Origin: a virus | Lineage: Duplodnaviria > Heunggongvirae > Uroviricota > Caudoviricetes | Virus record (IMG/VR): IMGVR_UViG_2740892443_000003 | Span: 1 to 16,874 of that record | Reading direction: 5' to 3' (one strand) | Length of the DNA stretch: 16,874 bases | Shown: in pieces, positions 787-16,874 of the stretch | How the letters are laid out: the number at the start of each line of letters is the position of its first letter | How positions within the stretch are numbered: the stretch's first letter is position 1 | Position numbers and translations under genes: made by a program | The notes under the pieces: model-generated | The model's input: the letters and a program-made list of their open reading frames with translations, nothing else | Told to the model about the DNA's origin: nothing | Databases searched by the model: none

Positions 787-1077
787 CTATCAGTGCCATT
801 AGCAGGAAGAGATATCACCGGAGTTTAATGTGTGATTTTTTATTTATCGTCGAACCTGGATTGTTTATCATTGTCCTTAACAAGGCTAACGGCTAATAAG
901 ATTATTTCCATCACTTCGTGAGAGCTTCATGCCTTGATTTGATCTCAATTTTCTTTTGCAATGAGACAGGCGCTTCCTGTTGTTATGGTATAGTACCCCG
1001 CTATTGAGCCTCCTGAACAGTGATGCTGAATAACATAACCCAATGATATATCGATAAAATAATCTCTACATTTGAAA

Positions 1078-1182
1078 ATGCACGGTAATTCTGAAATGCA
1101 AAAAATCAACCAAACCAGCGCAATGCCTGAAAAAACTGACGTTCACTGGAGTGGTCGGTTTAGCGTTGCACCAATGCTCGAT
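1078..1182 (+). repeat. attL-side copy of the dusA 5' segment (chromosomal version)
   Basis: Direct repeat of 15461-15565; about 20 mismatches over 105 nt by manual codon-by-codon alignment. Confidence 0.8.
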
Positions 1183-1325: not shown

Positions 1326-1862
1326 ATGATGCTTACCCTGGACGAGATAGGTCAATCAGTACGTAACAATATCCAGTTGATTATTGATCATGTCGGCTTA
1401 CCTCTTGCTGTTGGTCCGCTCAGTGATGATGATTACAAGATTCTGTGTGGTGGCTATGGTGAGCTTGAATGGGACTATGCGTTAAGCACCTATGGCAACT
1501 CCAGAGAAAAGTATGAGTTCTGCATAAAACTTGTTCAGCAAGGTCGGGTTCAGGGAATACCATCAGGAGCAGCAATTTGTGTTTATGGGGTTGAAGAAAA
1601 CATCTTTCGTATCCATATGATCGAAAGGTTTTCTAGAGAAGATGAATCTCACCCATTGAAAGGGCGCATGGTTTTACTCACTCTTATGAGTGCTTTTATA
1701 TTTTGTAAAGCTGTTGAATGTAAAGTTGTCCACATTGTAGAGCCAGTACCAGAACTGGTGCAGTATTACGAGTCTTTTGGTTTCCGCATGGAACAGTGCG
1801 GTTATGTGATGTCTGCAGTCATTGATGAGCTGCAGGATATCTTTCTTAAATTTGCTCAGTAG
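1326..1862 (+). CDS. Putative GNAT-fold N-acetyltransferase-like protein, 178 aa (island cargo)
   Basis: ORF with tandem ATGs at 1326 and 1329 and a GAGAGG Shine-Dalgarno. C-terminal region KGRMVLLTLMSAFIFCKAVECKVVHIVEPVPELVQYYESFGFRM resembles the GNAT acetyl-CoA-binding core. Functional call is tentative. Confidence 0.55.
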   Translation: MMLTLDEIGQSVRNNIQLIIDHVGLPLAVGPLSDDDYKILCGGYGELEWDYALSTYGNSREKYEFCIKLVQQGRVQGIPSGAAICVYGVEENIFRIHMIERFSREDESHPLKGRMVLLTLMSAFIFCKAVECKVVHIVEPVPELVQYYESFGFRMEQCGYVMSAVIDELQDIFLKFAQ

Positions 1863-2597: not shown

Positions 2598-3170
2598 TCA
2601 TAATTCTGTGCTGGTGGCAGGAATTAATTTCTGCCAGATAGCGGAAACATATTTTGCCTGATGACGAGCATCAGCCAGGGCGTTGTGCCGTTCGCCATCG
2701 AAAGGCATGTCCATTTTGGGGTCGAATCCGATGAAACGCCCAAGCGTAACGATCGTGCGTACATCGTGGTCATTCCAGCACGCCCATGGGCAGATTTGTC
2801 CTGCTCGCTCATAAGCCCCACGTAAAATTACGTTGTCGAAGGTGGCTCCGTTACCCCAGACTTTTAAATATTTCGTATTGTCTGCGTGCCGGTTAATGAA
2901 ATGGTTCAGTTCAGAGAGTGCATCGCTGATCGACAAAGTATCATCAATACAGATTGCAGCTCGTGCTTCAGGGCTTTGTTTCAACCACCACAGGATGGTA
3001 TCGCCGTCAGGTGTGGCCCCTTGCTCCATAGCACTTTCCAGGCTGACAACCGTATAGAATTCTTGTCCGATGTCTCCGGTTTCTGGGGTGAAGAACACCG
3101 CGCCAATGGAAACGATTGGTGCATCCTTATTTTTCCCCATCGTCTCAAGGTCGATCATTAAGTTGTTCAT
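2598..3170 (-). CDS. DnaQ-like DEDDh 3'-5' exonuclease, 190 aa
   Basis: N-terminal MIDLETMG (Exo I D-x-E motif) and C-terminal H...D motif. ATG at 3168-3170 with GGAGGT Shine-Dalgarno, overlapping the upstream stop (TGATG). Confidence 0.8.
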   Translation of the reverse strand: MNNLMIDLETMGKNKDAPIVSIGAVFFTPETGDIGQEFYTVVSLESAMEQGATPDGDTILWWLKQSPEARAAICIDDTLSISDALSELNHFINRHADNTKYLKVWGNGATFDNVILRGAYERAGQICPWACWNDHDVRTIVTLGRFIGFDPKMDMPFDGERHNALADARHQAKYVSAIWQKLIPATSTEL

Positions 3171-3919
3171 CACTTCACCTCCTGCGGCGGTTCCGGTAGC
3201 GGCATCCAGTGAGTTGCTTGCTCAATACCATTACCCGGCTTAATCGTTGCATCTCCGCGCCGAAAGGTGCTTCCGGTATAGCGTGCGGAGCATATTAGCG
3301 GTTCAACCAGAGAGCTATCGAAATTCACCGAAATAAGCACGTTCTGGCCCTTTTCAGGCATTCGATCACTACAGCTTATCCAACTATCCGGAGTTCCTGG
3401 AGAGTTGCCACCGGGAATATTTTCCGGAATATTTTGTTGTGCGTTTTGTGGTTGTTCGGATTTACCCTGAAGCATGGCGGCTCGGCAGGCATCACTGCGA
3501 ACTTCAATCCCCGCCTTATCCAACGCAAGCAACAAACCTCGTTCGCTGTCTCCGCAGTCGTCCAGTGTGTCATTGAGCACCGAAAGCGCTTTTTCGAAAT
3601 CTTCATCGTGAATAGCGAGCGGCACAGCCACCGCTGGCTGCGGTAACTGTGGTGCTGTGTAGAGTGGCGTAACACTGATTTCGTATTCGTTAATATCTTC
3701 ATCGCTGATAGATGCATCAAAGCTTAAAAAGCCAGGTCTACCGAGACCACGGGCCTGTGCGTCCTGGATGATGTACGCCACAGCCTCAGCTTCGAGCGAT
3801 GCCAGTGCGATACGCGCCAGCTCTTTGACAACATCACAGTTTTTATTTCCTTCGCAATCATCCATCAAAAGCCAATCGTCATTGATTATTTCTTTAATCT
3901 TATCCCGTGAAAGTTCCAT
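3170..3919 (-). CDS. Phage protein with C-terminal DUF551-like domain, 249 aa
   Basis: C-terminal WISCSDRMPEKGQNVLIS...HWMPLPEPP resembles DUF551. GGGGGTG Shine-Dalgarno before the ATG at 3917-3919. Confidence 0.65.
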   Translation of the reverse strand: MELSRDKIKEIINDDWLLMDDCEGNKNCDVVKELARIALASLEAEAVAYIIQDAQARGLGRPGFLSFDASISDEDINEYEISVTPLYTAPQLPQPAVAVPLAIHDEDFEKALSVLNDTLDDCGDSERGLLLALDKAGIEVRSDACRAAMLQGKSEQPQNAQQNIPENIPGGNSPGTPDSWISCSDRMPEKGQNVLISVNFDSSLVEPLICSARYTGSTFRRGDATIKPGNGIEQATHWMPLPEPPQEVK

Positions 3920-4119
3920 TATTTCACCCCCTTAGCTTTTCGTTCTGCTTCACTAAAATCCCAATCAACACGATGCGATATTTCAATGGCCGCCCTAACT
4001 GAATGTTCAATCATGATGTCGAGCCTTTGAAGTGTCATAGCCATATTTGGATTTCGAGCCAATATTTCTGCGCGAAGAATTTGCCAGTCATTGCATGTTT
4101 CAAGTAATGAATTAGCCAT
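3919..4119 (-). CDS. Small hypothetical protein, 66 aa
   Basis: Internal ATG (4117-4119) of the 85-aa track ORF, chosen to avoid a 65-nt overlap with the upstream gene. Weak Shine-Dalgarno. Confidence 0.35.
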   Translation of the reverse strand: MANSLLETCNDWQILRAEILARNPNMAMTLQRLDIMIEHSVRAAIEISHRVDWDFSEAERKAKGVK

Positions 4120-4621
4120 TATCTTTACCCCGCGTGCCATATGCTGATAAGCACTCTTCAAATCCAGCCTGATCATCCGTTTGACCTAAACTGAAGCCAT
4201 GCTGAAGACCATGACGAAATGCGCTATCCTGTAATTTGTCTGCAGATTCTAGTTTCAACTCCAGTTCAGCAATCCGCTCCTCATACCGAGCGCCAACGGA
4301 AACGGCTTTATGGAAGGCTTCGCACCATTTGGACGATTGCGCCTGCATCTTCTCCAGCTCATCCAGCAGCGCCAAGACGGTAGCCGGATTGGCTGCGGCG
4401 ATGAATTCAGCATTGGCCTGCTGTTCCATTTGGAAATCTTCATCGAAACCGCTTTCTGGATGCGCTCCTTCAATTCTGCAAATAGGAATATATCCAGCAA
4501 CTTCACGATGAATTAGTGCATCATCACCATCAAATCGGCCATCTCCATATTCGAGCGACCACTCGCCACTCGTTGCTTTTTCTGCCGCCTCACGCAGTGC
4601 CTGATAGTTAATTTTGGTCAT
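4112..4621 (-). CDS. Phage early protein, possibly Ead/Ea22-like, 169 aa
   Basis: Intact ORF in operon register. The motif ANAEFIAAANPATVLALLDELE and a coiled-coil-like C-terminus recall Ea22-like prophage proteins (memory only). Confidence 0.55.
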   Translation of the reverse strand: MTKINYQALREAAEKATSGEWSLEYGDGRFDGDDALIHREVAGYIPICRIEGAHPESGFDEDFQMEQQANAEFIAAANPATVLALLDELEKMQAQSSKWCEAFHKAVSVGARYEERIAELELKLESADKLQDSAFRHGLQHGFSLGQTDDQAGFEECLSAYGTRGKDNG

Positions 4622-4622
4622 A

Positions 4623-4922
4623 TCACATCACCCTGAAGCCGTTGCATTTACGTAAAAAATCGCAGATATAGCCCTTCATTTTTTCGTGCCAATCTCGATC
4701 ATTCCCATTGCACCAACCATCAGGTGGAGTCCAGTTTTCTATCAGAGCAGCCATTTTCTTTGCTTTCGCCGGAGTAGCTGTTGCGGTATCGCAGTAATGA
4801 CGAGTGTCAACCAACGTATCCATACCATCGATATCAAGTACGCAAAACCATGTGTGATTCGGCATTTCAACAGATGGTATTTGTTGCCCACGTCGACGTT
4901 TATCAATAAGACATACAGTCAC
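4623..4922 (-). CDS. Hypothetical protein, up to 99 aa; start uncertain (GTG overlapping the upstream stop)
   Basis: ORF in operon register. Size is close to YfdT of CPS-53 (101 aa) but no sequence recognised. Confidence 0.4.
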   Translation of the reverse strand: MTVCLIDKRRRGQQIPSVEMPNHTWFCVLDIDGMDTLVDTRHYCDTATATPAKAKKMAALIENWTPPDGWCNGNDRDWHEKMKGYICDFLRKCNGFRVM

Positions 4923-5497
4923 TGGTTGCCTCCTTTGCGAAGCTGGTCGGCGATATCTTCGAGAACGCCATCAGAGAATGAGCGGTCAAAATCGCCTTCC
5001 GGCGCATTAGCCATAAAATCAGTAGAGGTAAGAATCATCCTGGCAATATCCGCGGCGTTCTTCGCAGTATCATCAATAAAACCAGCTCCCCAGGCAGCCA
5101 TCATTCTGTTCGCCACAAAGTAAGCGCCCTCCTTGCGTGCTTCAGTCTTCACTTCAGCCAGAAAGGCGTCGGTGGCTGGGGTTTCGCTGTGGTGCAGGGC
5201 ATCGTTGATAATCATTGCAGCAACTCCGGCCTGCCCTGCATCCGTGACCGACACATGCTCAAGAGTTACAGCCATTGCATGTTTAAGCCCCGCATTCTCA
5301 GAAGCCAGCTCCGCGCACTTGTCCTCAATGTTATCAATCGTGATTCCAGCAGAACGACACTCCCGCAACGCCGTTTCTAGTTTTGATTCAAGTTCACCGA
5401 ACTTACGGACAAGATATTCAGCGTTTGTTTCATTCACTTTCAGATCTCGTGGTACACATTTCCCGCGAAGAAACCCTTCCATTTCGAAAACATTCAT
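4919..5497 (-). CDS. Hypothetical phage early protein, 192 aa
   Basis: ATG at 5495-5497 overlaps the upstream stop (ATGA coupling). No family recognised. Confidence 0.55.
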   Translation of the reverse strand: MNVFEMEGFLRGKCVPRDLKVNETNAEYLVRKFGELESKLETALRECRSAGITIDNIEDKCAELASENAGLKHAMAVTLEHVSVTDAGQAGVAAMIINDALHHSETPATDAFLAEVKTEARKEGAYFVANRMMAAWGAGFIDDTAKNAADIARMILTSTDFMANAPEGDFDRSFSDGVLEDIADQLRKGGNQ

Positions 5498-6030
5498 GCG
5501 CATTTGCGTAACTCCGATAACTCGTTAAAACGTTCCATAAACATCCCGTAGGCATGGCCCGGTGCCAGTGGAATCACGTTGAACATCTCTGTTGCCGGGA
5601 TGCCTTCCAGTACAGGCCAGAAAGAGCCATCATCAAGCCCGAGATCGCGGCGTTCGGTTGCCAGCATGATGAGATCGGCATATTTCACAGGCGTGCTCAT
5701 AACCGGGGGTAACCCGTATTTCTCACGGATTACGGCGTCTATTTTTTCTTCCATTCGTTTATAGTCAGGAAGAAGGCGTTTCAGTGGTGCGGGGATGTCC
5801 TGGCAATACGCTTCTGTTGCATCATGCATTAACGCTTCAAAAGCAAATTCCTGCGGTACCAGCTGGCTGCAAAGCACCGCATGTTGGGCGACGCTGTAGA
5901 AGTGTGAAAGATGGCCGGCAAAGCGACATATATTTGAAAGGGAAACCGCGATATCGTTAATATCGATGCTGTCTTTATTTATCCTGTCATAATAAAAATG
6001 CTTCCCGGAAAAAGTTTTAATAAATGACAT
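5494..6030 (-). CDS. yfdR: HD-domain phosphohydrolase, YfdR-like, 178 aa
   Basis: H...HD motifs (CRFAGH, SVAQHAV, EALMHDATEAY). ATG at 6028-6030 with GGAGAA Shine-Dalgarno gives 178 aa, the size of CPS-53 YfdR. Sits downstream of YfdP- and YfdQ-sized genes. Confidence 0.75.
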   Translation of the reverse strand: MSFIKTFSGKHFYYDRINKDSIDINDIAVSLSNICRFAGHLSHFYSVAQHAVLCSQLVPQEFAFEALMHDATEAYCQDIPAPLKRLLPDYKRMEEKIDAVIREKYGLPPVMSTPVKYADLIMLATERRDLGLDDGSFWPVLEGIPATEMFNVIPLAPGHAYGMFMERFNELSELRKCA

Positions 6031-6086
6031 TTTGTTCTCCACGTTATATGCGCTGCACCGCGCTGAATTTTGGTTAAAGAAAACCC

Positions 6087-6146
6087 TCGCCTTCAGGCGA
6101 TTATTGAGTCAATTACGTTTCCATAAATGCCCCCGCAGGGGCATTT
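6087..6146 (-). other. Two GC-rich hairpins in the yfdQ-yfdR spacer; possible attenuator or RNA-stability element
   Basis: TCGCC-ttca-GGCGA (6087-6100), followed on the minus strand by GGGTTTTCTTT; and the perfect AAATGCCCC-cgca-GGGGCATTT (6125-6146). Confidence 0.35.
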
Positions 6147-6158
6147 GCGGTAATGAAA

Positions 6159-6983
6159 TCAGGCGGTGAAAGTCCCAATAAAGGTTTCTACTTTGCTGTC
6201 CTTGAATTTCTCAACAAGCAGATCACGAAATTCGTTAGCCATATCTTCCTGCACCGCTTCCAGCTGAATAATGCGTAGAACCAGTACCGGACGATCGCCA
6301 GTGATAATGCTGAGGCGTAATTTAAACGGACGTTCTTTCAGACCTTCAAACGGAACGCATTTAAACTCAAATGCCACTGGCATAATGTCTTTGGTCTTCG
6401 CTTCGACAGACTCCATCAGGGAGCGTTTGCCGCTGAAGTCATTATCTTCAAAATCAGCAGTCTGGTTTGCTTCAATTGTGATTTTACGGACTGCCGCAGC
6501 CGCTTTGGTTGCCTGAATGGTGTCACCATTAGCATCAAAGCCCACAAGGTAGTCGGCCCAGTCTTCAATCCATTCTGCCAGTGACTTCTGGGAGTTACGC
6601 TCGCCGTTAACAGACAACAGGGCAGAGAACGGTGCTGTCTTTTTCAGTTTGAGAGTGGCGGTGTTATCTGCGTGACCTGGTTCATCAATAGTACCCAGGT
6701 TAAGCACACTGACTGCTCGCATATTATCGGCATCGATAAAGCAGCGGGTGCCTTCATCTGCAAGATCTTTAGAATAACGGGTAAAGTCATCGATGCTGGC
6801 AGTGGAAAGCGCACCACGGAAACGGAAGCGATTTAAATTAAATTTTTCCAGATCATGAATGCGGAAATTCTCAGGCAATGCCACAGCATCGGCACCAATC
6901 TTACTGATAATTTCATTAACACCCTGAGCAGAAATAAGGGCATGGATTTGATTAATTGCGGTTGCGTCTAAGTTCTGAGACAT
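6159..6983 (-). CDS. yfdQ: YfdQ-like (DUF2303-type) prophage protein, 274 aa
   Basis: Exact size of CPS-53 YfdQ and the same position in a yfdP-yfdQ-yfdR order. GTGAGGA Shine-Dalgarno. Sequence identity itself not checked. Confidence 0.7.
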
Positions 6984-7048
6984 AATAAGTCCTCACTATA
7001 TAAAGATATTCAGTGATGAGATAAATAATCGGTTAATTAAGAACGATA

Positions 7049-7411
7049 TTAATGACCTGCTGCGCGGAGTTTTCCGTCAGGTTCACCGGCAAGAGTCAGT
7101 AATTGTCCCTGGTCTTCCTGCAGAATAGTCAGGCGACCACCGCGATTGACATACATCGGCGTTTCGGTGGTGTCTTCTTCGGAAATTTTCCCGCGGTTAG
7201 TCGGGCGAACATATGAGAGTTTGTGTTTGATTTTCACACGGTTCTCATCAAATGGTTCGATTTCCAGGTTGAGTGAGACCTTACCTTTGGTTTTCGTGTT
7301 CATCACACCTGAAGCGACTTCACTGAGAACTGCGCCGATTTTGGTTTCAAATACGCCGCCGTCCAACTCCCCGATAAATGCCTGCACATCAGTACTGCGT
7401 TCGCTAGCCAT
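7049..7411 (-). CDS. yfdP: YfdP-like prophage protein, 120 aa
   Basis: Start placed at the internal ATG (7409-7411), which has a GAGGAG Shine-Dalgarno 7 nt upstream. The 182-aa track ORF extends upstream through a structured noncoding region. Confidence 0.6.
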   Translation of the reverse strand: MASERSTDVQAFIGELDGGVFETKIGAVLSEVASGVMNTKTKGKVSLNLEIEPFDENRVKIKHKLSYVRPTNRGKISEEDTTETPMYVNRGGRLTILQEDQGQLLTLAGEPDGKLRAAGH

Positions 7412-7460
7412 TTTGCTGCTCCTCATCATATCGACCCTGCAAGGTCGGTTGGTTTCTCCA

Positions 7461-7547
7461 CAAAACAGAGAAGAACACCTGCGGTGGCAGCCGCCCGGAT
7501 GGATTGGGTTATGAGCCCGTCGTCCGGTGATGCTCTTCTCTGTTTTG
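7461..7547 (-). repeat. Long inverted repeat in the early-operon leader: 14-bp perfect arms, 59-bp spacer
   Basis: CAAAACAGAGAAGA (7461-7474) is the exact reverse complement of TCTTCTCTGTTTTG (7534-7547). Lies 50-135 bp upstream of the yfdP start. Confidence 0.5.
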
Positions 7548-7594
7548 TAAAAAGAGCGGTACCAGCCGGAAGCAAGTGTACAAACTGGTACCGC
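7548..7594 (-). terminator. Candidate intrinsic terminator or OL-like operator in the leftward leader
   Basis: GCGGTACCAG (7556-7565) and CTGGTACCGC (7585-7594) are exact inverted repeats; on the minus strand they are followed by TCTTTTTA. The arms contain the GGTACC core seen in the cI/cro operators. Confidence 0.4.
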
Positions 7595-8026
7595 CAAAGC
7601 AGTGGCTGTTGTGGTGACCGGTGCTGATCTCCGGCTTGCGGTTATTTCAGACTCTCACTGGCGTTTAATTGCCCCGCCGAACAGCTCTTTTCCGCAATAG
7701 CTGCAATGTCTTTCGCGCATCAGCCTGCGCATTCACCACAACGCTGAGAGCACTTAGCCAGTTACGGCACCACACTTTGTCGCGGTTCCATAAATGCCCT
7801 CATCGTTGCACCCTGGTCTCTTCCCAGGTGTCAAACCGAACCGCCACGCTGGTTAGGCGTCTTATCAGCATCATCATTGACTTGCACATTCCGGCTACCT
7901 GGTTTGTTTGCCCGAGCAAGGAGTGGATTGTCCCCTTTAACGTCCCCAGACCGCTAACGACGCATGTGCCATACGCCGTGTTACAACCAAATTTTGTTTA
8001 ATCTTGCCTGTGACATGTTTCTTTTA

Positions 8027-8059
8027 GATACATTATGTATCTCAAGGGTACATTGTCAA
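8027..8059 (-). promoter_or_regulatory. PL-like leftward promoter with overlapping operator palindrome
   Basis: Minus-strand -35 TTGACA (plus 8054-8059), 16-bp spacer, -10 CATAAT (plus 8032-8037). The perfect palindrome GATACA-tta-TGTATC (8027-8041) overlaps the -10, and GGTACATT lies at the -35. Confidence 0.5.
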
Positions 8060-8061
8060 GT

Positions 8062-8086
8062 ATAAAAAAACCTGCCGAAGCAGGTT
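8062..8086 (-). terminator. Rho-independent terminator of the cI-like gene
   Basis: AACCTGC-cgaa-GCAGGTT hairpin followed on the minus strand by seven T residues, 12 bp after the cI stop. Confidence 0.75.
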
Positions 8087-8097
8087 ATAAATATTGA

Positions 8098-8772
8098 TTA
8101 GGCCTTTATTTTGTATCTTCTTGGTTTTCCTGAGAAAATTACTGTACCAATTATAGAGCAATTACCGTTGATCTTAATGTAAGGTTCAGGCCAGTTTGGG
8201 TTTAATGCTTTGAGGTAACGCTGTGTTCCATCTTCTATCAACCGCTTAAAGGTGGTTTCGCCTGTATCGTGCATCAATGCAATAACGTCGTCACCGTGGC
8301 AGGCAGGGACTTCAGGATCTACAAAAATCATGTCTCCCGGGCGGTACTCATCAATCATTGAATCACCAATCACCCGCAAGATATAAGTCATTTCGCCACA
8401 GGGTACAGGGCAGGGATAAGTTTCTGCTGTGCTCAAATCAACCTCAGAATAGCCAACTTCTTTCCATGCTCCGGCCTGTACCCATGATATGACAGGGACT
8501 AACGTTATTTGTTTGTTAGTGATTGAAACGTCAGGTTTTTTTGTGATGTTCGTTGTCTGGTGTTCTTGATCAAGCCATCCGACAGGCAGGTCGAAACATT
8601 TTTCGATGTGCCGTGCCATGCTGTCACCGATATTTTTAGTTGCACCATCTCCCATAAACCTGCTGGTCTGGGTTGGCTCGCGATCAATCATGGTGGCAAA
8701 GGAAGAATTCCCGCCAACACCATCTCTCAGTTTTCTGGCGTTAGACCGCCGGATGTCATGGACTGTTTTCAT
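8098..8772 (-). CDS. Lambda-cI/LexA-type autocleavable repressor (S24 peptidase C-terminal domain), 224 aa
   Basis: VQAG cleavage-site motif, GDSM serine nucleophile, TFKRL lysine. C-terminus aligns by eye to lambda cI ([22 protein letters not shown] versus TFKRLIEDGTQRYLKALNPNWP). N-terminal HTH region. Confidence 0.9.
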   Translation of the reverse strand: MKTVHDIRRSNARKLRDGVGGNSSFATMIDREPTQTSRFMGDGATKNIGDSMARHIEKCFDLPVGWLDQEHQTTNITKKPDVSITNKQITLVPVISWVQAGAWKEVGYSEVDLSTAETYPCPVPCGEMTYILRVIGDSMIDEYRPGDMIFVDPEVPACHGDDVIALMHDTGETTFKRLIEDGTQRYLKALNPNWPEPYIKINGNCSIIGTVIFSGKPRRYKIKA

Positions 8773-8788
8773 AAAGAAATTAAAACCT

Positions 8789-8807
8789 TTGTACCGATAA
8801 GGTACAA
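8789..8807. promoter_or_regulatory. Operator palindrome TTGTACC-gataa-GGTACAA in the cI/cro intergenic region
   Basis: Perfect 7-5-7 inverted repeat lying over the predicted -35 regions of the divergent promoters. Confidence 0.6.
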
Positions 8808-8812
8808 GTATC

Positions 8813-8840
8813 TTGAAGGTTCATCTCAATCATGTAATAT
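8813..8840 (+). promoter_or_regulatory. PR-like promoter for the cro/baseplate operon
   Basis: -35 TTGAAG (8813-8818), 16-bp spacer, -10 TAATAT (8835-8840). Confidence 0.45.
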
Positions 8841-8859
8841 GTATACCGGAGGTACATAT
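8837..8859. promoter_or_regulatory. Second operator-like palindrome ATATGTA-N9-TACATAT overlapping the PR -10 and transcription start
   Basis: Exact inverted half-sites at 8837-8843 and 8853-8859. Shares the TGTA / GGTACA core with the 8789 and 8027 sites. Confidence 0.45.
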
Positions 8860-8862
8860 TGT

Positions 8863-9231
8863 ATGAAAGCGTATTGGGACTCTTTAACCAAAGAACAGCA
8901 GGGTGAGTTGGCCGGAAAAGTTGGCTCAACACCAGGCTACTTACGGCTGGTTTTCAATGGTTATAAAAAAGCCAGTTTTGTGCTGGCTAAAAAACTTGAG
9001 CAATGCACGTCAGGTGCAATTACGAAATCTGACTTAAGACCGGATATCAACACGCGCCTTGAACAGTCTGCACGGATCATTCAGCGCACGCCGGATGAGG
9101 TTTTACCCGCGCTGGTGCTGGCGGCGACCTGGTTTGATAACGCGGCGCGTGACGCGGACATTATCCGGCGTAATGCCATTACGCATCCCGGCTTTGTGCC
9201 GGTGATCCCTCTGAAGGTGCCAGTGCAATGA
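8863..9231 (+). CDS. Cro/YdaS-like HTH regulator with a C-terminal extension, 122 aa
   Basis: GGAGG Shine-Dalgarno then ATG at 8863. GSTPGYLRLVFNG...SGAITKSDLRPDI fits the YdaS/Cro HTH pattern. The last ~45 codons are GC-rich like the structural genes. The stop overlaps the next start (ATGA at 9228-9231). Confidence 0.6.
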   Translation: MKAYWDSLTKEQQGELAGKVGSTPGYLRLVFNGYKKASFVLAKKLEQCTSGAITKSDLRPDINTRLEQSARIIQRTPDEVLPALVLAATWFDNAARDADIIRRNAITHPGFVPVIPLKVPVQ

Positions 9232-10307
9232 ACGACAATGTCACGCTACGGGTAAATGGCCGGGAGTGGAATGGCTGGACATCGGTGCGCATCGGTGCCG
9301 GTATTGAACGGCTGGCGCGGGATTTCAGTGTGGAGATCACTCGCCAATGGCCGGGAGATGAGGGTATCACCACGCTTCAGCCGCGCATTAAAAACGGTTC
9401 AAAAGTGGAAGTGCTAATTGGTGATGAGCTGGTGATCACCGGCTGGGTGGAGGCGACTCCCGTTCGTTACGATGCCCGTTCGGTCAGCACCGGTATTGCC
9501 GGACGTAGTCTGACGGCTGACCTGATTGACTGTGCAGCCGAACCGACACAGTTTAACGGACGCTCGCTGGTGCAGATTGCGCAGGCGCTTGCTGCACCTT
9601 TCGGCATTGAGGTGGTGAACAGCGGTGCGCCGTCGGGTGTTATTCCTGATGTTCAGCCTGATCACGGTGAAACGGTGATTGAGGTAATCAACAAAATACT
9701 CGGTCAGCAGCAGGCGCTGGCTTACGACGACCCGCACGGCAGGCTGGTGATTGGCGGTATTGGCTCAACGCGGGCACATACCGCGCTGGTACTTGGGGAA
9801 AACATCCTTTCCTGCGATACGGAGAAGAGTATCCGGGAGCGGTTTTCTGTTTACCAGGTGGCGGGGCAGCGTGCCGGAAACGACGATGATTTCGGTGAGG
9901 CCACCACAACTGCGCTGCGGGCCCGCACAGAGGACGCATTTATTGCCCGTTACCGTCCGATGTATATCAGGCAGACAGGGCAGGCCACGGGGGCAGGCTG
10001 TATTGCGCGTGCTGACTTTGAAGCCCGACAACGGGCGGCGCGGACGGATGAAACCACTTATGTGGTGCAGGGCTGGCGACAGGGTAACGGTACGCTGTGG
10101 CAGCCCAACCAGCGGGTGATTGTCTTCGATCCGGTCTGTGGTTTCGACAATACCGAACTGCTTGTTTCGGAAGTCACGTTTACTCAGGACCAGAACGGCA
10201 CCCTGACGGAAATCCGTGTCGGCCCGCCTGATGCTTATCTGCCTGAACCCGAAGATCCCGGCGCGCGGAAAAAGAAAAAAGCCAGAGTACAGGAGGACCC
10301 GTTCTGA
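9228..10307 (+). CDS. Baseplate hub protein (Mu gp44 / P2 gpD-like), 359 aa
   Basis: Size and position immediately upstream of a gpV-like gene in conserved Mu/P2 baseplate order; family membership not confirmed by motif. High GC. Translationally coupled on both sides. Confidence 0.6.
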   Translation: MNDNVTLRVNGREWNGWTSVRIGAGIERLARDFSVEITRQWPGDEGITTLQPRIKNGSKVEVLIGDELVITGWVEATPVRYDARSVSTGIAGRSLTADLIDCAAEPTQFNGRSLVQIAQALAAPFGIEVVNSGAPSGVIPDVQPDHGETVIEVINKILGQQQALAYDDPHGRLVIGGIGSTRAHTALVLGENILSCDTEKSIRERFSVYQVAGQRAGNDDDFGEATTTALRARTEDAFIARYRPMYIRQTGQATGAGCIARADFEARQRAARTDETTYVVQGWRQGNGTLWQPNQRVIVFDPVCGFDNTELLVSEVTFTQDQNGTLTEIRVGPPDAYLPEPEDPGARKKKKARVQEDPF

Positions 10308-10855
10308 TGAGGGCGATTGAAGCCATGCAGCGACAACTCCTCGGCCTGATTGGGCGGGCCGTGGTGAAAAGCATCAGTGCCGCCACGAAATGTCAGACCG
10401 TGGATGTGTCCCTGATTGCCGGTGAACCCAAAGCCGGGGTTGAACATCTTGAACCCTACGGTTTTACCGCAAGGGCAAACAGCGGTGCGGAAGCGGTGGT
10501 GTTGTTTCCGGATGGCGACCGTTCTCATGCGGTGGTTGTTACGGTGTCGGACCGGCGCTACCGCCTGAAAGGGCTGCAGACGGGTGAGGTGGCTGTCTAT
10601 GACGATCAGGGGCAGTCCGTGACGCTGACCCGGGAGGGGATCGTGGTGGACGGTGCAGGTAAAACGATCACGTTTCGCAATTCACCTAAAGCACGTTTTG
10701 AAATGGACCTGGAAGTGACAGGACAGGTGAAAGACCTGTGCGACTCCAGCGGCACTACCATGTCAGCGATGCGGCTTGCCTATAACGGGCATCGTCACAG
10801 AGAGAACGGTCAGGGCAGTAACACCGACAAACCGGATAAAGCGATGGAGGCATGA
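10307..10855 (+). CDS. Baseplate spike / assembly protein V-like (Mu gp45), 182 aa
   Basis: gpV-like features including a C-terminal YNGHRH motif comparable to LHTHKH in P2 gpV. AGGAGG Shine-Dalgarno. TGATG overlap with the upstream stop. Confidence 0.7.
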   Translation: MRAIEAMQRQLLGLIGRAVVKSISAATKCQTVDVSLIAGEPKAGVEHLEPYGFTARANSGAEAVVLFPDGDRSHAVVVTVSDRRYRLKGLQTGEVAVYDDQGQSVTLTREGIVVDGAGKTITFRNSPKARFEMDLEVTGQVKDLCDSSGTTMSAMRLAYNGHRHRENGQGSNTDKPDKAMEA

Positions 10856-11280
10856 TGGAACTGTGGCTGACGGTGAACGGTAAACGCACCTGCGCCAGCG
10901 CACCGCTGGATCCGCTGACCCGCGCCGTGGTGATTTCCCTGTTTACCTGGCGGCGGGCGGAGCCTGATGACAACGCCGACGTCCCGATGGGATGGTGGGG
11001 GGATACCTGGCCTGCGGTACAGAATGACCGTTACGGCTCCCGACTGTGGCTGCTTCAGCGCAGCAAACTGACCAATCAGCTGGTGCAGACAGTAAGGGGG
11101 TATATCCGCGAATGCCTGCAATGGATGATTGATGACGGTGTGGTGTCCCGTATTGATCTGGATATCCGCCGCACCGGGATTAATGAGCTGGGTAACAGTA
11201 TCACCCTCTGGCGTCGTGACGGACCGGTAATGATTTCTTTTGATGATCTGTGGAGTGCGATAACGCATGGCGGACAGTGA
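10852..11280 (+). CDS. GP46/gpW-type baseplate wedge protein (T4 gp25-like), 142 aa
   Basis: Size and position in conserved order. GGAGG Shine-Dalgarno. Overlaps neighbours on both sides. Confidence 0.65.
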   Translation: MMELWLTVNGKRTCASAPLDPLTRAVVISLFTWRRAEPDDNADVPMGWWGDTWPAVQNDRYGSRLWLLQRSKLTNQLVQTVRGYIRECLQWMIDDGVVSRIDLDIRRTGINELGNSITLWRRDGPVMISFDDLWSAITHGGQ

Positions 11281-12325
11281 ATTTCAGCGCCCGACGCTGG
11301 CAGAAAATATCAGTATGCTCCGTAACGATTTATTCGCCAGGCTGGACGTCAGCGACACGCTCCGGCGCATGGATGAAGACGTGCGGGCAAAGGTGTATGC
11401 GGCGGCGCTGCATACGGTTTACGGTTACATCGATTATCTGGCAATGAACATGCTGCCTGATCTGTGCGATGAGTCCTGGCTGGCGCGACATGCTGCGATG
11501 AAACGGTGTCCGCGCAAGGGGGCCACGGCTGCCAGCGGGTATATGCGCTGGGAAGGTGTCAGCGATGGCCTGAAGGTGACCGCCGGGAGTGTTATTCAGC
11601 GCGATGACCTGGTTCAGTACACGGCAACTGCCGATGCAACCAGCACTGGTGGTGTCCTGCGTGTGCCGATCACTTGCTCAACTACAGGCGCGGTCGGTAA
11701 CGCTGACGACGGTACGGCATTAATCCTGGTCACACCGGTGAATGGTCTGCCGTCTTCCGGTGTGGCTGACACCCTGACAGGCGGATTTGATACTGAAGAG
11801 CTGGAAACGTGGCGCGCCCGCGTCATTGAGCGGTATTACTGGACGCCTCAGGGCGGGGCTGACGGGGACTATGTCGTCTGGGCTAAAGAAGTGCCCGGCA
11901 TTACCCGCGCATGGACATACCGACACTGGATGGGAACGGGGACTGTCGGTGTGATGATTGCCAGCAGTGACCTGATTAATCCCATTCCGGAAGAGTCAAC
12001 GGAAACGGCGGCAAGACAACATATCGAGCCACTGGCCCCGGTGGCAGGCTCTGATTTGTATGTATTCAGGCCGGTGGCGCATAAAGTGGATTTTCATATC
12101 CGCGTGACGCCGGACACACCGGAAATACGGGCTGCCATCACCGCCGAGTTGCGTTCGTTCCTGCTGCGTGATGGTTATCCGCAGGGAGAACTGAAGGTGT
12201 CACGTATCAGTGAAGCGATTTCCGGTGCGAACGGGGAATACAGCCATCAGTTGCTTGCCCCGGCGGACAATATCTCCATTGCAAAAAATGAGCTGGCGGT
12301 TCTGGGGACGATTTCATGGACGTGA
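11267..12325 (+). CDS. Baseplate J-like protein (Mu gp47 / P2 gpJ), 352 aa
   Basis: Typical size and position. Overlaps neighbours by 14 and 10 nt. Confidence 0.75.
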
Positions 12326-12900
12326 CAAACGATGATTATATCCGTCTGTTGTCGGCACTGTTGCCGCCCGGTCCGGCGTGGTCAGTCAGCGATCCGGCGA
12401 TTGCCGGTGCGGCACCGTCATTAACCCGCGTTCATCAGCGTGCGGATGCCCTGATGCGGGAGCTGGATCCGCGCACCACCACTGAACTGATAAACCGCTG
12501 GGAGCGTCTGTGCGGTCTGCCGGATGAATGTATTCCCGCAGGGACACAGACCCTTCGCCAGCGTCAGCAACGGCTGGATGCGAAGGTTAATCTGGCGGGC
12601 GGCATCAATGAGGATTTTTATCTTGCACAGCTTGCTGCCCTGGGCAGACCAGACGCCACTATCACGCGATACGATAAAAGCACGTTCACCTGCTCATCGG
12701 CCTGTACTGACGCGGTGAATGCGCCGGAATGGCGGTATTACTGGCAGGTCAACATGCCAGCCGCCACCAACACCACCTGGATGACATGTGGCGATCCCTG
12801 TGATTCCGCACTGCGTATCTGGGGCGACACCGTTGTCGAGTGTGTGCTTAACAAACTCTGCCCGTCGCATACCTACGTAATTTTTAAATATCCGGAGTAA
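12316..12900 (+). CDS. Mu gp48 / P2 gpI-like tail protein (YmfQ-like, DUF2313-type), 194 aa
   Basis: Same length as e14 YmfQ (from memory). Sits between the J-like gene and the tail fibre. Confidence 0.7.
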
Positions 12901-12903
12901 TCC

Positions 12904-13551
12904 ATGCATCGTATAGACACGAAAACCGCGCAGAAGGATAAGTTCGGCGCGGGTAAGAACGGTTTTACCCGTGGTAATCCCCAGACTGGTACGCCTGCCA
13001 CCGATCTGGATGATGACTACTTTGACATGTTGCAGGAGGAGCTTTGCAGCGTTGTGGAGGCATCCGGTGCCAGCCTGGAGAAGGGGCGGTATGACCAGTT
13101 GCTTACCGCACTTCGCGCACTGCTGTTAAGCCGCAATAATCCGTTTGGTGATATCAAATCGGACGGCACGGTACCAACGGCTCTCAAAAACCTTGGTTTA
13201 GGAGAAGCGGCGAAAAGGGATGTGGGCACAGGAGATAATCAGATACCGGATATGGGAGCATTCGCTTCTGGTTCGGGATGGTTCAGGCTACCAGGTGGAT
13301 ATATTGTTCAGTTTGGCACTTTTTCAGGAAACACGACCCGCTTTATCAGTGGACACTTCCCTATACCATTCCCTAATCAGCCGATGGTTTCAGTCAGTGT
13401 TATGTCTGATGCCGTTCAGTCAGACCCGTCGAATCCTGCCCCGCAGGTTTTGTCTGTAAATTTTGAACATATCAGTAATTCAGCGTGGCGTGTGGCAACC
13501 AGTGATATCTCACAGCAATACAGATTCAGTTATATTTCGATAGGACGGTAG
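12904..13551 (+). CDS. Short tail fibre protein, 215 aa (conserved N-terminal domain plus variable C-terminal part)
   Basis: [47 protein letters not shown] is the conserved phage tail-fibre N-terminus. GGAG Shine-Dalgarno. Confidence 0.75.
13181..13206. other. Gin/Pin/Hin-type (Din family) 26-bp crossover-site-like sequence inside the tail-fibre gene
   Basis: CTCTCAAAAACC-TT-GGTTTAGGAGAA is an imperfect palindrome with the AAACC-NN-GGTTT core. It matches hixL (TTCTTGAAAACCAAGGTTTTTGATAA, from memory) at 9 of 12 positions in each half. Confidence 0.5.
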
Positions 13552-13553
13552 AA

Positions 13554-13994
13554 ATGCAGAAATATATTTTCAGTGCCGATAAAAATGCGTTTTTCCCTGT
13601 GGAGCTTAAAATCGCTTATCAGGAATCCGGCGAATGGCCCGATGATGGAATCGAAATTGACGACACTGTTGCCGCCGAATTTATGAAGGAAGCACCAGAA
13701 GGAAAATACAGAGGTGTCATCGACGGAATGCCAGCATGGATTGATATTCCACCGCCAACTCATGAGGAACAAATTGCCGCAGCCGAACTGGAAAAGCAGC
13801 AATTGATTAATCAGGTCAACGAATACATAAACAGTAAGCAATGGCCTGGTAAAGCGGCGATTGGTCGCCTGAAAGGTGAGAAACTGGCGCAATATAATTT
13901 GTGGCTGGATTATCTGGACGCACTGGAGCTGGTCGATACTTCCGGTGCGCCAGATATTGAATGGCCTACGCCTCCGGCAGTTCAGGCCAGATGA
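13554..13994 (+). CDS. Tail fibre assembly chaperone (Tfa, Mu U / lambda Tfa-like), 146 aa
   Basis: MQKYIFSADKNAFFP... with a C-terminal ...PDIEWPTPP motif typical of Tfa proteins. Confidence 0.8.
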   Translation: MQKYIFSADKNAFFPVELKIAYQESGEWPDDGIEIDDTVAAEFMKEAPEGKYRGVIDGMPAWIDIPPPTHEEQIAAAELEKQQLINQVNEYINSKQWPGKAAIGRLKGEKLAQYNLWLDYLDALELVDTSGAPDIEWPTPPAVQAR

Positions 13995-15372
13995 CATCCG
14001 GCGCGGTGCTGGTATCTGTTGCCGCCACCGCGTCAATGTAATCCAGCACAGCGTTAAGCCGGGTTGTTTCTGCCTGCGTCAGTTTACGTCCGGCCTGCAA
14101 TTTCAGTTGAATCAGACTGATGGAAGCCATAGCAGCATCAATCAGCGACTGGCGCTGTGCTTCTGCCGCGTCTACTGCGGCGCTATGTTGTGCCTCGGTA
14201 TCCGTCACCCATTTCTCACCATCCCATTTATCGTATGGCGTTAACGGGGCGATAGTGGTTGTATTATCAGGGTAATCACCCGGAGCTGTGATTTCTTTTG
14301 ATTCCCCTGTTTCGGTGCTAAAAACGATTTCACCGCGATGGTCTGGCATATATTCCCATGATTTTAAATCTGCTGAACGGCAGATAACCTGGGCTACTTC
14401 CTCAATACTAAAACCAGCCTCAAATAAGCGACTTGCCCCTTCTCTACGCAAATCATGGTATCGCAGATCCTTAATACCTAATTTGCTTCTTACCCTCTGA
14501 AATCCCGCAGTAACAGAAGTGCTGTTATATGGAAAAATGAATTCCGATTTTTGGGGCTGTCGTTGGACGATATCCCAGGCTTCCCCAAGCAAGGCTACTT
14601 TCATGTGGTTGCCTTCCTTTTTGCGTGGATCTTTCCTGTCTCTTACGAGTATAGATTTTTGTTCCTGGTCGAGATCTTCCCATCGTAACCGGCATACTTC
14701 TCCGATTCGCATACAGGACCACACAGAAAATTTGAGGATATCAACGAACGGAATTTTTGAGCATTTATGAGTAGATCGTTGTTGAAGGCCTTCAATGAGC
14801 ATGTCCAGTTCATCAGATGCTGGTCTACGATTACGACGGTTTGATTTACCAATTAAACCAAGTTTAAGTAGATATGGACGAGCGGCTTTTGCTGGGTTTG
14901 ATGTGTAATTAATTCCATATACAGGTTTGGCAGCATCCAGAACACTGCCAAGATAACTAACATCGTGGCTAACTGTAGCTGGACCTGCACCAGCGTTGTT
15001 TCTTAGCCTGCAATGTTCAATTACGTCATTTTCTGTCAGTTCAGATAGTTTGATCGCGGAGATGTCACTATCCATAAGCAGTTCCAGCACATATCTTTTA
15101 GTACGGCCTGCTTTACCTCCGGCATTTGGGTCATTTAAATATTTGTGTAGTAAGTCACGGACTGTAAGTCCGTCAACTGCATTTGATGATGGAATGCCAT
15201 ATAGATCTAATTCCATCACTTTCTGTGTGCCCCATGTTTTGGCATGAGCATGTTTAGGGAATGTTTTGCTTTCCCTGTAAGTGATAACACCTTTTTCTTT
15301 GATAATCACATTACAGCGATAGCGTGGTGTGCCATCGGATTTTAGTCGTTTCTCTATGTTATAGTACGCCAT
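13966..15372 (-). CDS. int: dusA-associated tyrosine integrase with an in-frame C-terminal Tfa-like extension, 468-aa ORF
   Basis: Catalytic motifs by eye: R in IGEVCRLRWEDLD, H-x-x-R in YHDLRREG, Tyr in SWEY. After ...YMPDHRGE the frame continues about 110 codons into Tfa-like sequence (...KWDGEKWVTDTEAQ...APDVIWPELPEA). Its 3' end overlaps tfa convergently by 29 bp. Confidence 0.8.
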   Translation of the reverse strand: MAYYNIEKRLKSDGTPRYRCNVIIKEKGVITYRESKTFPKHAHAKTWGTQKVMELDLYGIPSSNAVDGLTVRDLLHKYLNDPNAGGKAGRTKRYVLELLMDSDISAIKLSELTENDVIEHCRLRNNAGAGPATVSHDVSYLGSVLDAAKPVYGINYTSNPAKAARPYLLKLGLIGKSNRRNRRPASDELDMLIEGLQQRSTHKCSKIPFVDILKFSVWSCMRIGEVCRLRWEDLDQEQKSILVRDRKDPRKKEGNHMKVALLGEAWDIVQRQPQKSEFIFPYNSTSVTAGFQRVRSKLGIKDLRYHDLRREGASRLFEAGFSIEEVAQVICRSADLKSWEYMPDHRGEIVFSTETGESKEITAPGDYPDNTTTIAPLTPYDKWDGEKWVTDTEAQHSAAVDAAEAQRQSLIDAAMASISLIQLKLQAGRKLTQAETTRLNAVLDYIDAVAATDTSTAPDVIWPELPEA

Positions 15373-15392
15373 TACACGACCTCGTTATTTCG

Positions 15393-15427
15393 GGTTCCCA
15401 TAAAACGTGGGAACCTGTGCGGGAACC
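15393..15427. promoter_or_regulatory. Palindrome GGTTCCCA-N7-TGGGAACC plus a third GGGAACC copy between int and dusA; candidate operator or arm-type site
   Basis: Exact 8-bp inverted arms at 15393-15400 and 15408-15415, with GGGAACC again at 15421-15427. Lies 20-55 bp upstream of the int start and 35-70 bp upstream of dusA. Confidence 0.4.
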
Positions 15428-15460
15428 TAACGCGAGAAAAATAGCCTGAAATGTTCAAAA

Positions 15461-15565
15461 ATGCACGATAATCATGAAACACAAAAAATTAATCAAACCA
15501 GCGTGATGCCTGAAAAAACTGGTGTTTACTGGAATTCTCGGTTTAGCATTGCTCCTATGCTCGAC
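15461..15565 (+). repeat. attR-side copy of the dusA 5' segment (island-supplied replacement)
   Basis: About 81% identical to 1078-1182; continuous with the rest of dusA. Confidence 0.8.
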
Positions 15566-16498
15566 TGGACGGACAGACATTGCCGCTATTTCTTGCGTCT
15601 GCTTTCCCGCAATACGTTGCTGTATACCGAAATGGTGACCACAGGGGCGATTATTCACGGTAAAGGTGATTACCTGGCGTACAGTGAAGAAGAACATCCG
15701 GTAGCGTTGCAACTCGGCGGTAGCGATCCGGCGGCGCTGGCACAGTGTGCGAAGCTGGCAGAAGCGCGTGGATATGATGAGATCAACCTGAATGTCGGCT
15801 GCCCGTCTGACCGGGTGCAGAACGGCATGTTTGGTGCGTGTCTGATGGGTAATGCGCAGCTGGTTGCCGACTGTGTGAAAGCGATGCGCGATGTGGTGTC
15901 GATTCCAGTGACGGTGAAAACGCGTATTGGCATCGATGACCAGGACAGCTATGAATTTCTCTGCGATTTCATCAACACTGTTTCCGGCAAAGGCGAGTGT
16001 GAGATGTTTATCATCCACGCACGTAAAGCCTGGCTTTCGGGGTTAAGCCCGAAAGAAAACCGTGAAATCCCGCCGCTCGATTATCCGCGTGTGTATCAAC
16101 TGAAGCGTGACTTTCCGCATCTGACAATGTCGATTAACGGTGGTATCAAGTCGCTGGAAGAGGCCAAAGCACACCTGCAACATATGGATGGCGTGATGGT
16201 CGGGCGCGAGGCGTATCAGAATCCGGGTATTCTGGCGGCGGTAGACCGGGAGATCTTTGGTTCCTCGGATACCGATGCCGATCCGGTGGCGGTAGTGCGC
16301 GCCATGTATCCGTACATTGAGCGTGAACTCAGCCAGGGGACGTATCTCGGCCATATTACCCGGCATATGCTGGGTTTGTTCCAGGGTATTCCTGGCGCGC
16401 GGCAGTGGCGGCGTTATTTAAGTGAAAATGCCCATAAAGCGGGTGCTGACATTAACGTGCTGGAACACGCGCTCAAACTGGTGGCGGATAAGCGTTAA
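15461..16498 (+). CDS. dusA: tRNA-dihydrouridine synthase A, 345-aa ORF (alternative start at Met16, 15506)
   Basis: Full-length Dus-family protein. The first 35 codons differ from the K-12-like stub at 1078, consistent with 5' replacement by the island. Confidence 0.95.
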
Positions 16499-16527
16499 CT
16501 TTTCACCAAAAAGTAGTCAAATTCACC

Positions 16528-16557
16528 ACGCCCTGCGCACCGTCGCGGGGCGTTTTG
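16528..16557 (+). terminator. Hairpin terminator after dusA
   Basis: ACGCCCTGCG-caccgt-CGCGGGGCGT followed by TTTGCTGTT. Confidence 0.5.
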
Positions 16558-16580
16558 CTGTTAAATCAATAGATTATTTT

Positions 16581-16596
16581 TGGCATGATTCTTGTA
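16581..16596 (+). promoter_or_regulatory. sigma54-type promoter of pspG
   Basis: TGGCAT-N5-TTGT fits the -24 GG / -12 spacing. pspG is a known sigma54/PspF-dependent gene. Confidence 0.5.
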
Positions 16597-16631
16597 ATGC
16601 CAGCAAGAGATTTCATATTTGGGAGAGCATC

Positions 16632-16874
16632 ATGCTGGAACTACTTTTTGTGATTGGCTTTTTTGTCATGCTGATGGTCACCGGCGTTTCGTTGCTGGGC
16701 ATTATCGCCGCGCTGGTTGTGGCGACGGCCATTATGTTCCTCGGCGGTATGCTGGCATTGATGATTAAGTTGCTGCCGTGGTTACTACTGGCGATTGCGG
16801 TGGTGTGGGTTATTAAGGCGATTAAAGCACCAAAAATGCCGAAATATCAGCGTTATGACCGCTGGCGTTACTAA
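16632..16874 (+). CDS. pspG: Phage shock protein G, 80 aa, inner-membrane protein
   Basis: MLELLFVIGFFVMLMVTGVSLLGIIAALVVATAIMFLGG... matches PspG. GGGAGAG Shine-Dalgarno. The 150-aa track ORF is an upstream over-extension. Confidence 0.9.
   Translation: MLELLFVIGFFVMLMVTGVSLLGIIAALVVATAIMFLGGMLALMIKLLPWLLLAIAVVWVIKAIKAPKMPKYQRYDRWRY

Follow-up and report, generated by a model that had tools for sequence, protein, structure and literature searches.

A probable deletion-made chimera of integrase and tail fibre assembly genes in an Escherichia coli prophage remnant at dusA

Defective (cryptic) prophages are trapped by loss of the integrase and shrink through successive deletions. The invertible tail fibre segments of Mu (G/gin), P1 (C/cin) and e14 (P/pin) have a crossover site at the boundary between the constant and variable parts of the fibre gene, and the intact segments next to dusA in HH107 and in E. 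coli O68:H12 strain 97.3 have convergent tfa genes that overlap by 29 bp. The dusA-associated integrases (DAI) were defined with an RHRH tetrad and a nucleophilic Tyr (Farrugia et al., 2015, PMC4482086), and in Rci, the closest characterised relative, the tetrad and Tyr residues are essential for recombination but dispensable for DNA binding (PMC4482086). In Tfa proteins, the C-terminal helical domain mediates trimerisation (PMC9608196, the source used here for the roles of the Tfa domains, itself citing North et al., 2019).

The window (the whole 16,874-nt stretch of DNA analysed) shares with these fibre segments the crossover site at the constant/variable boundary and the convergent tfa genes; however, it keeps one site only, and the invertase, the alternative tip and codons 1-61 of the second tfa are gone. 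As in the DAI family, the integrase gene is divergent from and adjoins the 5′ end of dusA, that 5′ end is phage-supplied, and attL and attR flank the element, but the final 36 residues of the integrase, including His332 and Tyr342, are swapped for foreign sequence. Consistent with the cryptic-prophage model, the integrase appears to be inactivated and nested deletions took most of the tail genes as well as those for replication, lysis and the head; what differs is that the inactivating deletion is in frame and yields a long ORF in which two Pfam domains give the look of a new architecture. Shigella phage SfIV shares the tail module (97% DNA identity) and an inverted tfaE relic (gp22) overlapping tfa by 29 bp; its alternative arm has decayed too, but there an IS insertion has cut the relic, which is joined to no other gene, and SfIV, a viable phage, differs in carrying a different, intact integrase. 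Judged from sequence, the 468-codon ORF of the window is very probably (about 0.9) a deletion-made chimeric pseudogene in a prophage remnant, with the integrase inactive and the fibre switch frozen. Rather than a novel type of integrase, the fusion is a product of ordinary prophage decay within a single recent E. coli lineage.

The chimeric reading frame and its joint

The reading frame, its two parts and the joint between them are as follows:
13966..15372, minus strand: int::tfaE′ ORF, 468 codons (from the ORF list)
14385..15372, minus strand: int′, codons 1-329 of a dusA-associated tyrosine integrase (homology to 365-aa E. coli integrases; PF00589)
13966..14386, minus strand: tfaE′, codons 62-200 and the stop of a 200-aa TfaE-type protein (DNA and protein alignment; PF02413)
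14385..14386, minus strand: deletion joint with a 2-bp TA microhomology (three-way DNA alignment; overlapping BLAST ends against HH107, L008, at 8071 and 10878)
30-mer spanning the int/tfaE′ joint: GCCCAGGTTATCTGCCGTTCAGCAGATTTA

The minus-strand ORF was confirmed at these coordinates, and its 3′ end overlaps that of the convergent plus-strand tfa by 29 bp (13966-13994), both as an earlier note on this DNA had described them. In the 468-aa protein, PF00589 (Phage_integrase) matched residues 191-328 (E=2.3e-15; Pfam), corresponding to profile positions 10-152 of 172; PF02413 (Caudo_TAP) matched residues 346-467 (E=4.9e-32; 111.3 bits against a cut-off of 22.1), and PHROG 105 (tail fibre assembly) matched from residue 327 onward (E=2.1e-66). 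Thus, the Tfa similarity that the earlier note had proposed for the C-terminal part was recovered by profile searches, and the C-terminal 139 residues are assigned on these matches to the Tfa/Caudo_TAP family. The same note had seen a complete tyrosine-recombinase catalytic domain ending near SWEYMPDHRGE, followed by about 110 Tfa-like codons from a boundary near 14330, and here it has to be corrected: the integrase match ends at profile position 152, which was the first sign that the catalytic domain is cut short rather than extended, the boundary lies at 14385/14386 (residue 329/330), the Tfa-derived part comprises 139 codons, and SWEYMPDHRGE is conserved TfaE sequence (TfaE residues 70-80 in the protein alignment).

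Val329 is the final integrase-derived residue and Ile330 corresponds to TfaE residue 62, so that fusion residues 330-468 equal TfaE residues 62-200. A megablast comparison of positions 13400-15500 with 5,426 complete E. coli genomes placed the start of the integrase homology (99-100% identity) at window position 14385 in every case. The homology to tfaE spans 13966-14386. In the three-way DNA alignment, the int parent reads ...GCCCAGGTTA up to the joint and CAGGGCAT beyond it, the tfaE parent reads ...TATACTA and then TCTGCCGT, and the window reads ...GCCCAGGTTATCTGCCGT; a TA dinucleotide is all that the parent sequences share at the joint. Positions 9041-14386 aligned to HH107 (L008) 2726-8071 at 97.6% identity and positions 14385-16874 aligned to HH107 10878-13367 at 98.7% identity, and between the two aligned blocks 2,808 bp of HH107 are missing from the window, a deletion size that presumes an HH107-like ancestor. 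Relative to HH107, the lost interval contains tfaE codons 1-61, the alternative tip, the invertase, a DUF4145 gene, a dinI-like gene and int codons 330-365. HH107 has int and tfaE on one strand and in one phase, and the 2,808 bp are divisible by three (3 x 936); therefore, the int frame passes into the frame in which tfaE is normally read and terminates at the stop codon of that gene. With an in-frame joint, the sequence downstream is stop-free by construction, since it is tfaE's own frame, and the sole element of chance is the 1-in-3 phase of the deletion.

Site-specific recombination was considered as the cause of the deletion and rejected, because neither parental junction resembles a Din crossover site, the joint lies off-site and the microhomology is only 2 bp. 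A hexamer shared by the two parents, TGAACG (encoding 'RS' in both proteins), was likewise rejected as the crossover point, as it sits 6 and 9 nt from the joint. The event is best described as a putative illegitimate deletion of ∼2.8 kb with 2-bp microhomology, which would have run from inverted tfaE codon 61/62 to int codon 329/330 in an SfV/SfIV-like prophage integrated at dusA; a single deletion would thus have taken integrase function and fibre switching together.

Residues missing from the integrase

The integrase-derived part, residues 1-329, was 99-100% identical to 365-aa E. coli integrases and 56-85% identical to members from other genera. In the intact 365-aa relatives, ...FSIEEVAQV is followed by TGHRSLNVLWQVYTELYPKSLHNRFEELQRSRNKIS, the 36 residues that are gone from the window protein, and these proteins read on past the break as TGHRSLNVLWQVY.... 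The lost stretch aligns to the end of box II (GH......Y), including the catalytic tyrosine, of the XerA structures 5hxy and 4a8e. Of the catalytic residues, R222, H306 and R309 are kept in the 468-aa protein; however, the RHRH tetrad is incomplete, with ICR standing in place of the TGH that contains His332, and the nucleophile Tyr342 is deleted together with its LW..Y segment (residues 330-365 are missing). The motif VTGH[RK]xLxxLWxxY was invariant in 12 homologues of 56-91% identity, from Escherichia, Phytobacter, Izhakiella, Xenorhabdus, Salmonella, Erwinia, Gilliamella, Orbus, Aeromonas, Plesiomonas, Serratia and Dickeya, and T330, G331, H332 and Y342 were missing from the window protein alone.

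The chimera should therefore be catalytically dead, with strand cleavage impossible, and the prophage would as a result be unable to excise by means of its own integrase; at most, the protein may still bind DNA. By descent, the N-terminal 329 residues are those of a DAI, but the ORF is best filed as a truncated derivative and not as a functional member, because it lacks two features that define the family, the complete tetrad and the tyrosine.

The integrase gene sits at the right end of the element, with its start at 15372 adjoining the dusA start at 15461. The surrounding attachment features are the following:
15461..16498, plus strand: dusA, 345 aa, with a phage-supplied 5′ end (ORF list; dusA annotation in relatives)
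∼15457-15563: attR side of the prophage (alignment with attL and with L008)
1075..1181, plus strand: attL, the displaced native dusA 5′ fragment at the left prophage end (82-83% identity to the dusA start region)

The remnant measures ∼14.4 kb, compared with 37-41 kb in complete phages of the group (SKA5, SfIV and SfV), and is without replication, lysis, head, sheath, tube and tape-measure genes. In a scan of positions 13500-15500, promoter-like sites were as frequent as in the background, and terminator-like sites were only modestly enriched (five against 1.6 expected).

The fibre segment and stepwise decay of the prophage

Three plus-strand features mark what is left of the fibre segment beside tfaE′:
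12904..13551, plus strand: short tail fibre gene, 215 aa, with constant and variable parts and a gp53-like C-terminal tip (PF21882; PHROG 1396, tail fibre)
13181..13206, plus strand: orphan Din-family crossover site CTCTCAAAAACCTTGGTTTAGGAGAA where the constant part of the fibre gene meets the variable part
13554..13994, plus strand: intact tfa, 146 aa, the chaperone of the fibre tip frozen in place (PF02413, E=2.7e-33)

The layout from which the window could be derived is preserved in HH107, where the order toward dusA is fibre (215 aa), tfa (146 aa), inverted tfaE (200 aa), alternative tip (182 aa), invertase (frameshifted), DUF4145, dinI-like gene, int (365 aa) and dusA; its tail module is of the SfV/SfIV type, as in the window, and its fibre gene is equal in length to that of the window. 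In E. coli O68:H12 strain 97.3 (L002), the order is fibre, tfa (197 aa), inverted tfa (147 aa), alternative tip, invertase, dinI-like gene, int (365 aa) and dusA. The convergent tfa overlap of 29 bp was also found in L003 and phage SfIV in addition to L002 and L008, and the convergent pair persists in the window (13554-13994 on the plus strand and 13966-14386 on the minus strand). These two layouts are those that the earlier note had postulated when it took the Tfa piece for the remnant of an inverted fibre arm, and that proposal proved sound, as did the losses that it had listed: the window retains no invertase, no alternative tip and no second crossover site, and its inverted tfa is without the N-terminus.

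A single Din-type crossover site was matched within the window, and homology to L001, a prophage with a different tip, stops at 13205, at that site. HH107 has two such sites, 6873-6892 and 8750-8769, inverted relative to each other (20 nt, 95% complementary), and the second falls inside the interval deleted from the window. Invertase genes were present in the relatives (L002 4874-5437, L003 2572-3120 and L008 8831-9387); in the window, the ORF list and the alignment to L008 placed no invertase gene between tfaE′ and int, and tfaE′ joins int directly. With invertase, second site and alternative tip lost, the fibre segment is, on these alignments, frozen in one orientation.

The Tfa fragment itself (13966-14386) was 97.9% identical in DNA to tfaE of E. 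coli PSJ-22 and 97-98% identical to full-length tfaE-type genes, and these alignments identify it as a relic of the inverted arm of the invertible fibre segment. It is without its own start and without the 61 N-terminal residues of the fibre-binding domain, the leftover half of the Tfa N-domain is modelled as disordered (AlphaFold2, 13 sequences), and its cognate fibre tip is absent, since the alternative tip gene (L008 8253-8801; also in L003) is deleted in the window. A sequence search for a solved TfaE structure found none.

Contigs carrying the fusion differ in how much of the rest of the prophage remains. In L007, the DNA-circularisation gene is still almost full-length, and the contig ends inside the prophage. 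In the window and in L005, a large internal deletion joins a cro-like gene to the final 63 codons of the circularisation gene, at 9041, and L004 and L006 match the window except for the loss of another 6,687 bp (2912-9598), at a junction that likewise overlaps by 2 bp. From these shared and nested states, the simplest reading is that the fusion preceded the other deletions: the int::tfaE′ deletion would have come first, or at least early, the prophage would have been left unable to excise, and the trapped element would then have been eroded by further deletions.

Distribution and meaning of the fusion

The fused int/tfa arrangement was found in 0 of the 5,426 complete E. coli genomes (megablast, 13400-15500). 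A search of a 5.8-billion-protein collection returned 1,218 integrase homologues; the best 120 homologue clusters covered ∼70% of the query (residues 1-329), nearly all at 320-395 aa, and none of these 120 best-scoring cluster representatives contained PF02413. A Tfa-like tail is thus not shared among them, and a native Int-Tfa architecture was rejected on these grounds. With the Tfa profile matches given above, neither of the two outcomes that the earlier note had named as refuting came about for its account of where the Tfa piece originated. One longer, higher-scoring match (P0016, 392 aa) was examined as a possible extended homologue and rejected, as it has a 27-aa internal tandem duplication and a normal C-terminus. 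Separately, P0087 was recognised as a frameshifted integrase allele.

The exact 468-aa protein falls in a 90% cluster of 1,437 members, in which one 365-aa allele alone occurs on 950 contigs (WP_000332265.1 is an example of an intact 365-aa allele); the fusion was present on eight contigs in the contig index and on four in the protein-cluster look-up. Four fusion contigs were compared as DNA (L004-L007): two come from NCBI draft genomes, one from a Logan assembly (of an SRA run), and the fourth is a scaffold of an ENA metagenome. Carriers of the fusion include the assemblies GCA_015671505.1, GCA_015730935.1 and SRR13665550. Three of the four were 100% identical to the window over 2,945 bp, from dusA to tfa, with zero SNPs, and the shorter metagenome scaffold (L007) was 100% identical over 2,058 bp. 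The copies examined represent one recent lineage, and with zero SNPs among them no signal supporting selection for the fusion was found.

A rival reading is that the ORF is a functional new protein, in which a chimera lacking the Tyr is expressed and retained through DNA binding at att/dusA; it could then stabilise the remnant or act as a dominant-negative block of incoming dusA-targeting phages, possibly aided by the Tfa trimerisation helices. The DNA-binding N-terminal and core parts and the native int 5′ region are indeed intact (14385-16874, 98.7% identical to L008), Rci catalytic mutants still bind DNA (PMC4482086), the Tfa C-terminal helical domain trimerises (PMC9608196) and is predicted to fold here, and the ORF has remained intact while other parts of the remnant were lost in two later deletion rounds. 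However, zero SNPs in 2,945 bp point to recent origin rather than selection as the reason for its persistence, chance alone would put the joint in frame in one case out of three, disorder is predicted for residues 330-385, and the fusion is absent from all of the complete genomes searched and has not recurred independently among the homologue clusters. We consider this reading improbable. Its most specific form, in which the dead Int-TfaE′ chimera is made and kept, binds the dusA att region, perhaps as a Tfa-forced oligomer, and acts in a dominant-negative manner to lock the remnant in place or exclude other phages, would be slightly less probable again.

Even less likely is an active integrase with a C-terminal extension, in which the catalytic domain would be complete, Tyr341 of SWEY would act as nucleophile, leaving the Tfa tail as a mere appendage. 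What speaks for it is a match in position, Trp339 and Tyr341 of the fusion (SWEY) against Trp339 and Tyr342 of the native protein (WQVY), so that the Trp coincides and the Tyr is one residue off; but SWEY is native to TfaE and conserved in full-length TfaE proteins, and for that reason the match is probably a coincidence. Moreover, His332 is replaced, the otherwise invariant TGH...L..LW..Y and the next helix are missing, and the Pfam match stops at profile position 152 of 172. AlphaFold2 modelled residues 330-385 as coil (pLDDT ∼31, no helix), and only the two Tfa C-terminal helices (391-451) folded confidently, although the model is weak evidence, being built on a 13-sequence alignment with pLDDT of 50-60 even in the catalytic domain. 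A chimeric contig or draft mis-join, to which the absence of the arrangement from the complete E. coli genomes might point, has a negligible chance of being correct, as the same joint occurs on eight contigs and the four compared come from independent sources, differ in context beyond the baseplate genes and are all 100% identical across the joint.

Read as a deletion-made chimeric pseudogene, the locus carries a caveat for annotation: a 468-codon ORF with confident PF00589 and PF02413 matches mimics a new integrase architecture, and gene callers report the chimera as an intact protein despite the missing nucleophile. It opens no new biological question, and it might be of use in teaching, as a small example, or for marking the lineage. 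For the biology of prophages, it provides a clean, datable example of an element that would have been trapped and then eroded, with nested deletions in the same clone, at least one of which bears the same 2-bp junction signature as the fusion.

Nested decay states of the remnant

The identical int::tfaE′ fusion, in which a truncated integrase is joined in frame to an inverted tail-fibre-chaperone relic, is common to the metagenome scaffold L007, the window, and contigs L005, L004, and L006. Because L004 and L006 correspond to the window without 6,687 bp (2912-9598), with both flanks 100% identical, sequence comparison places the decay in a nested order, from L007 to the window and L005, and then to L004 and L006. 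The joint of this deletion (L004 15773-15774 region) has a 2-bp overlap. The window also contains a second deletion chimera, and features at its left side were annotated as follows:

8863-9231, plus strand: second deletion chimera, in frame, 122 aa, breakpoint 9041
2598-3173, minus strand: truncated exonuclease gene, matching PHROG 255 at profile positions 179-369 of 436 only
1326-1862, plus strand: 178-aa ORF, full-length match to PHROG 4350 (unknown function)

The N-terminal 59 residues of the chimera are those of a cro-like regulator (PHROG 35) and the C-terminal 63 residues are the end of a DNA-circularisation (tail) protein; this deletion took out the genes for replication, lysis, the head, the sheath, the tube, and the tape measure, and L007 does not have the deletion. 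Since the exonuclease gene is truncated and its 5′ end overlaps the neighbouring gene on the same strand (3170-3919), an additional rearrangement at the left side of the remnant is possible. The 178-aa ORF sits immediately inward of attL and was kept in every decay state, including the smallest remnant, L004.

Exchange of the dusA 5′ end

The N-terminus of the expressed dusA (15461-15565) is phage-supplied, and the displaced native 5′ fragment is still at attL (1075-1181): MHGNSEMQKINQTSAMPEKTDVHWSGRFSVAPMLD. The two copies share ∼83% identity. The same system in other strains also shows further decay alleles, specifically a 27-aa internal tandem duplication in one E. coli integrase (P0016), a frameshift in another (P0087, 281 aa), and, in E. 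coli HH107, an invertase gene that carries a frameshift (L008 8831-9387).

Loss of the alternative fibre arm

The fibre gene retains one element of an invertible segment:

13181-13206: orphan Din-family invertase crossover site, at the constant/variable boundary within the fibre gene

Its inverted partner, present in HH107 (L008 8750-8769), is deleted in the window. Shigella phage SfIV, a viable phage, contains the same inverted tfaE relic (L009 10910-11434; 174 aa), with a 29-bp overlap with tfa, here interrupted by an IS element. The presence of this IS-cut relic in SfIV as well indicates that the alternative fibre arm has been lost repeatedly within this phage group.
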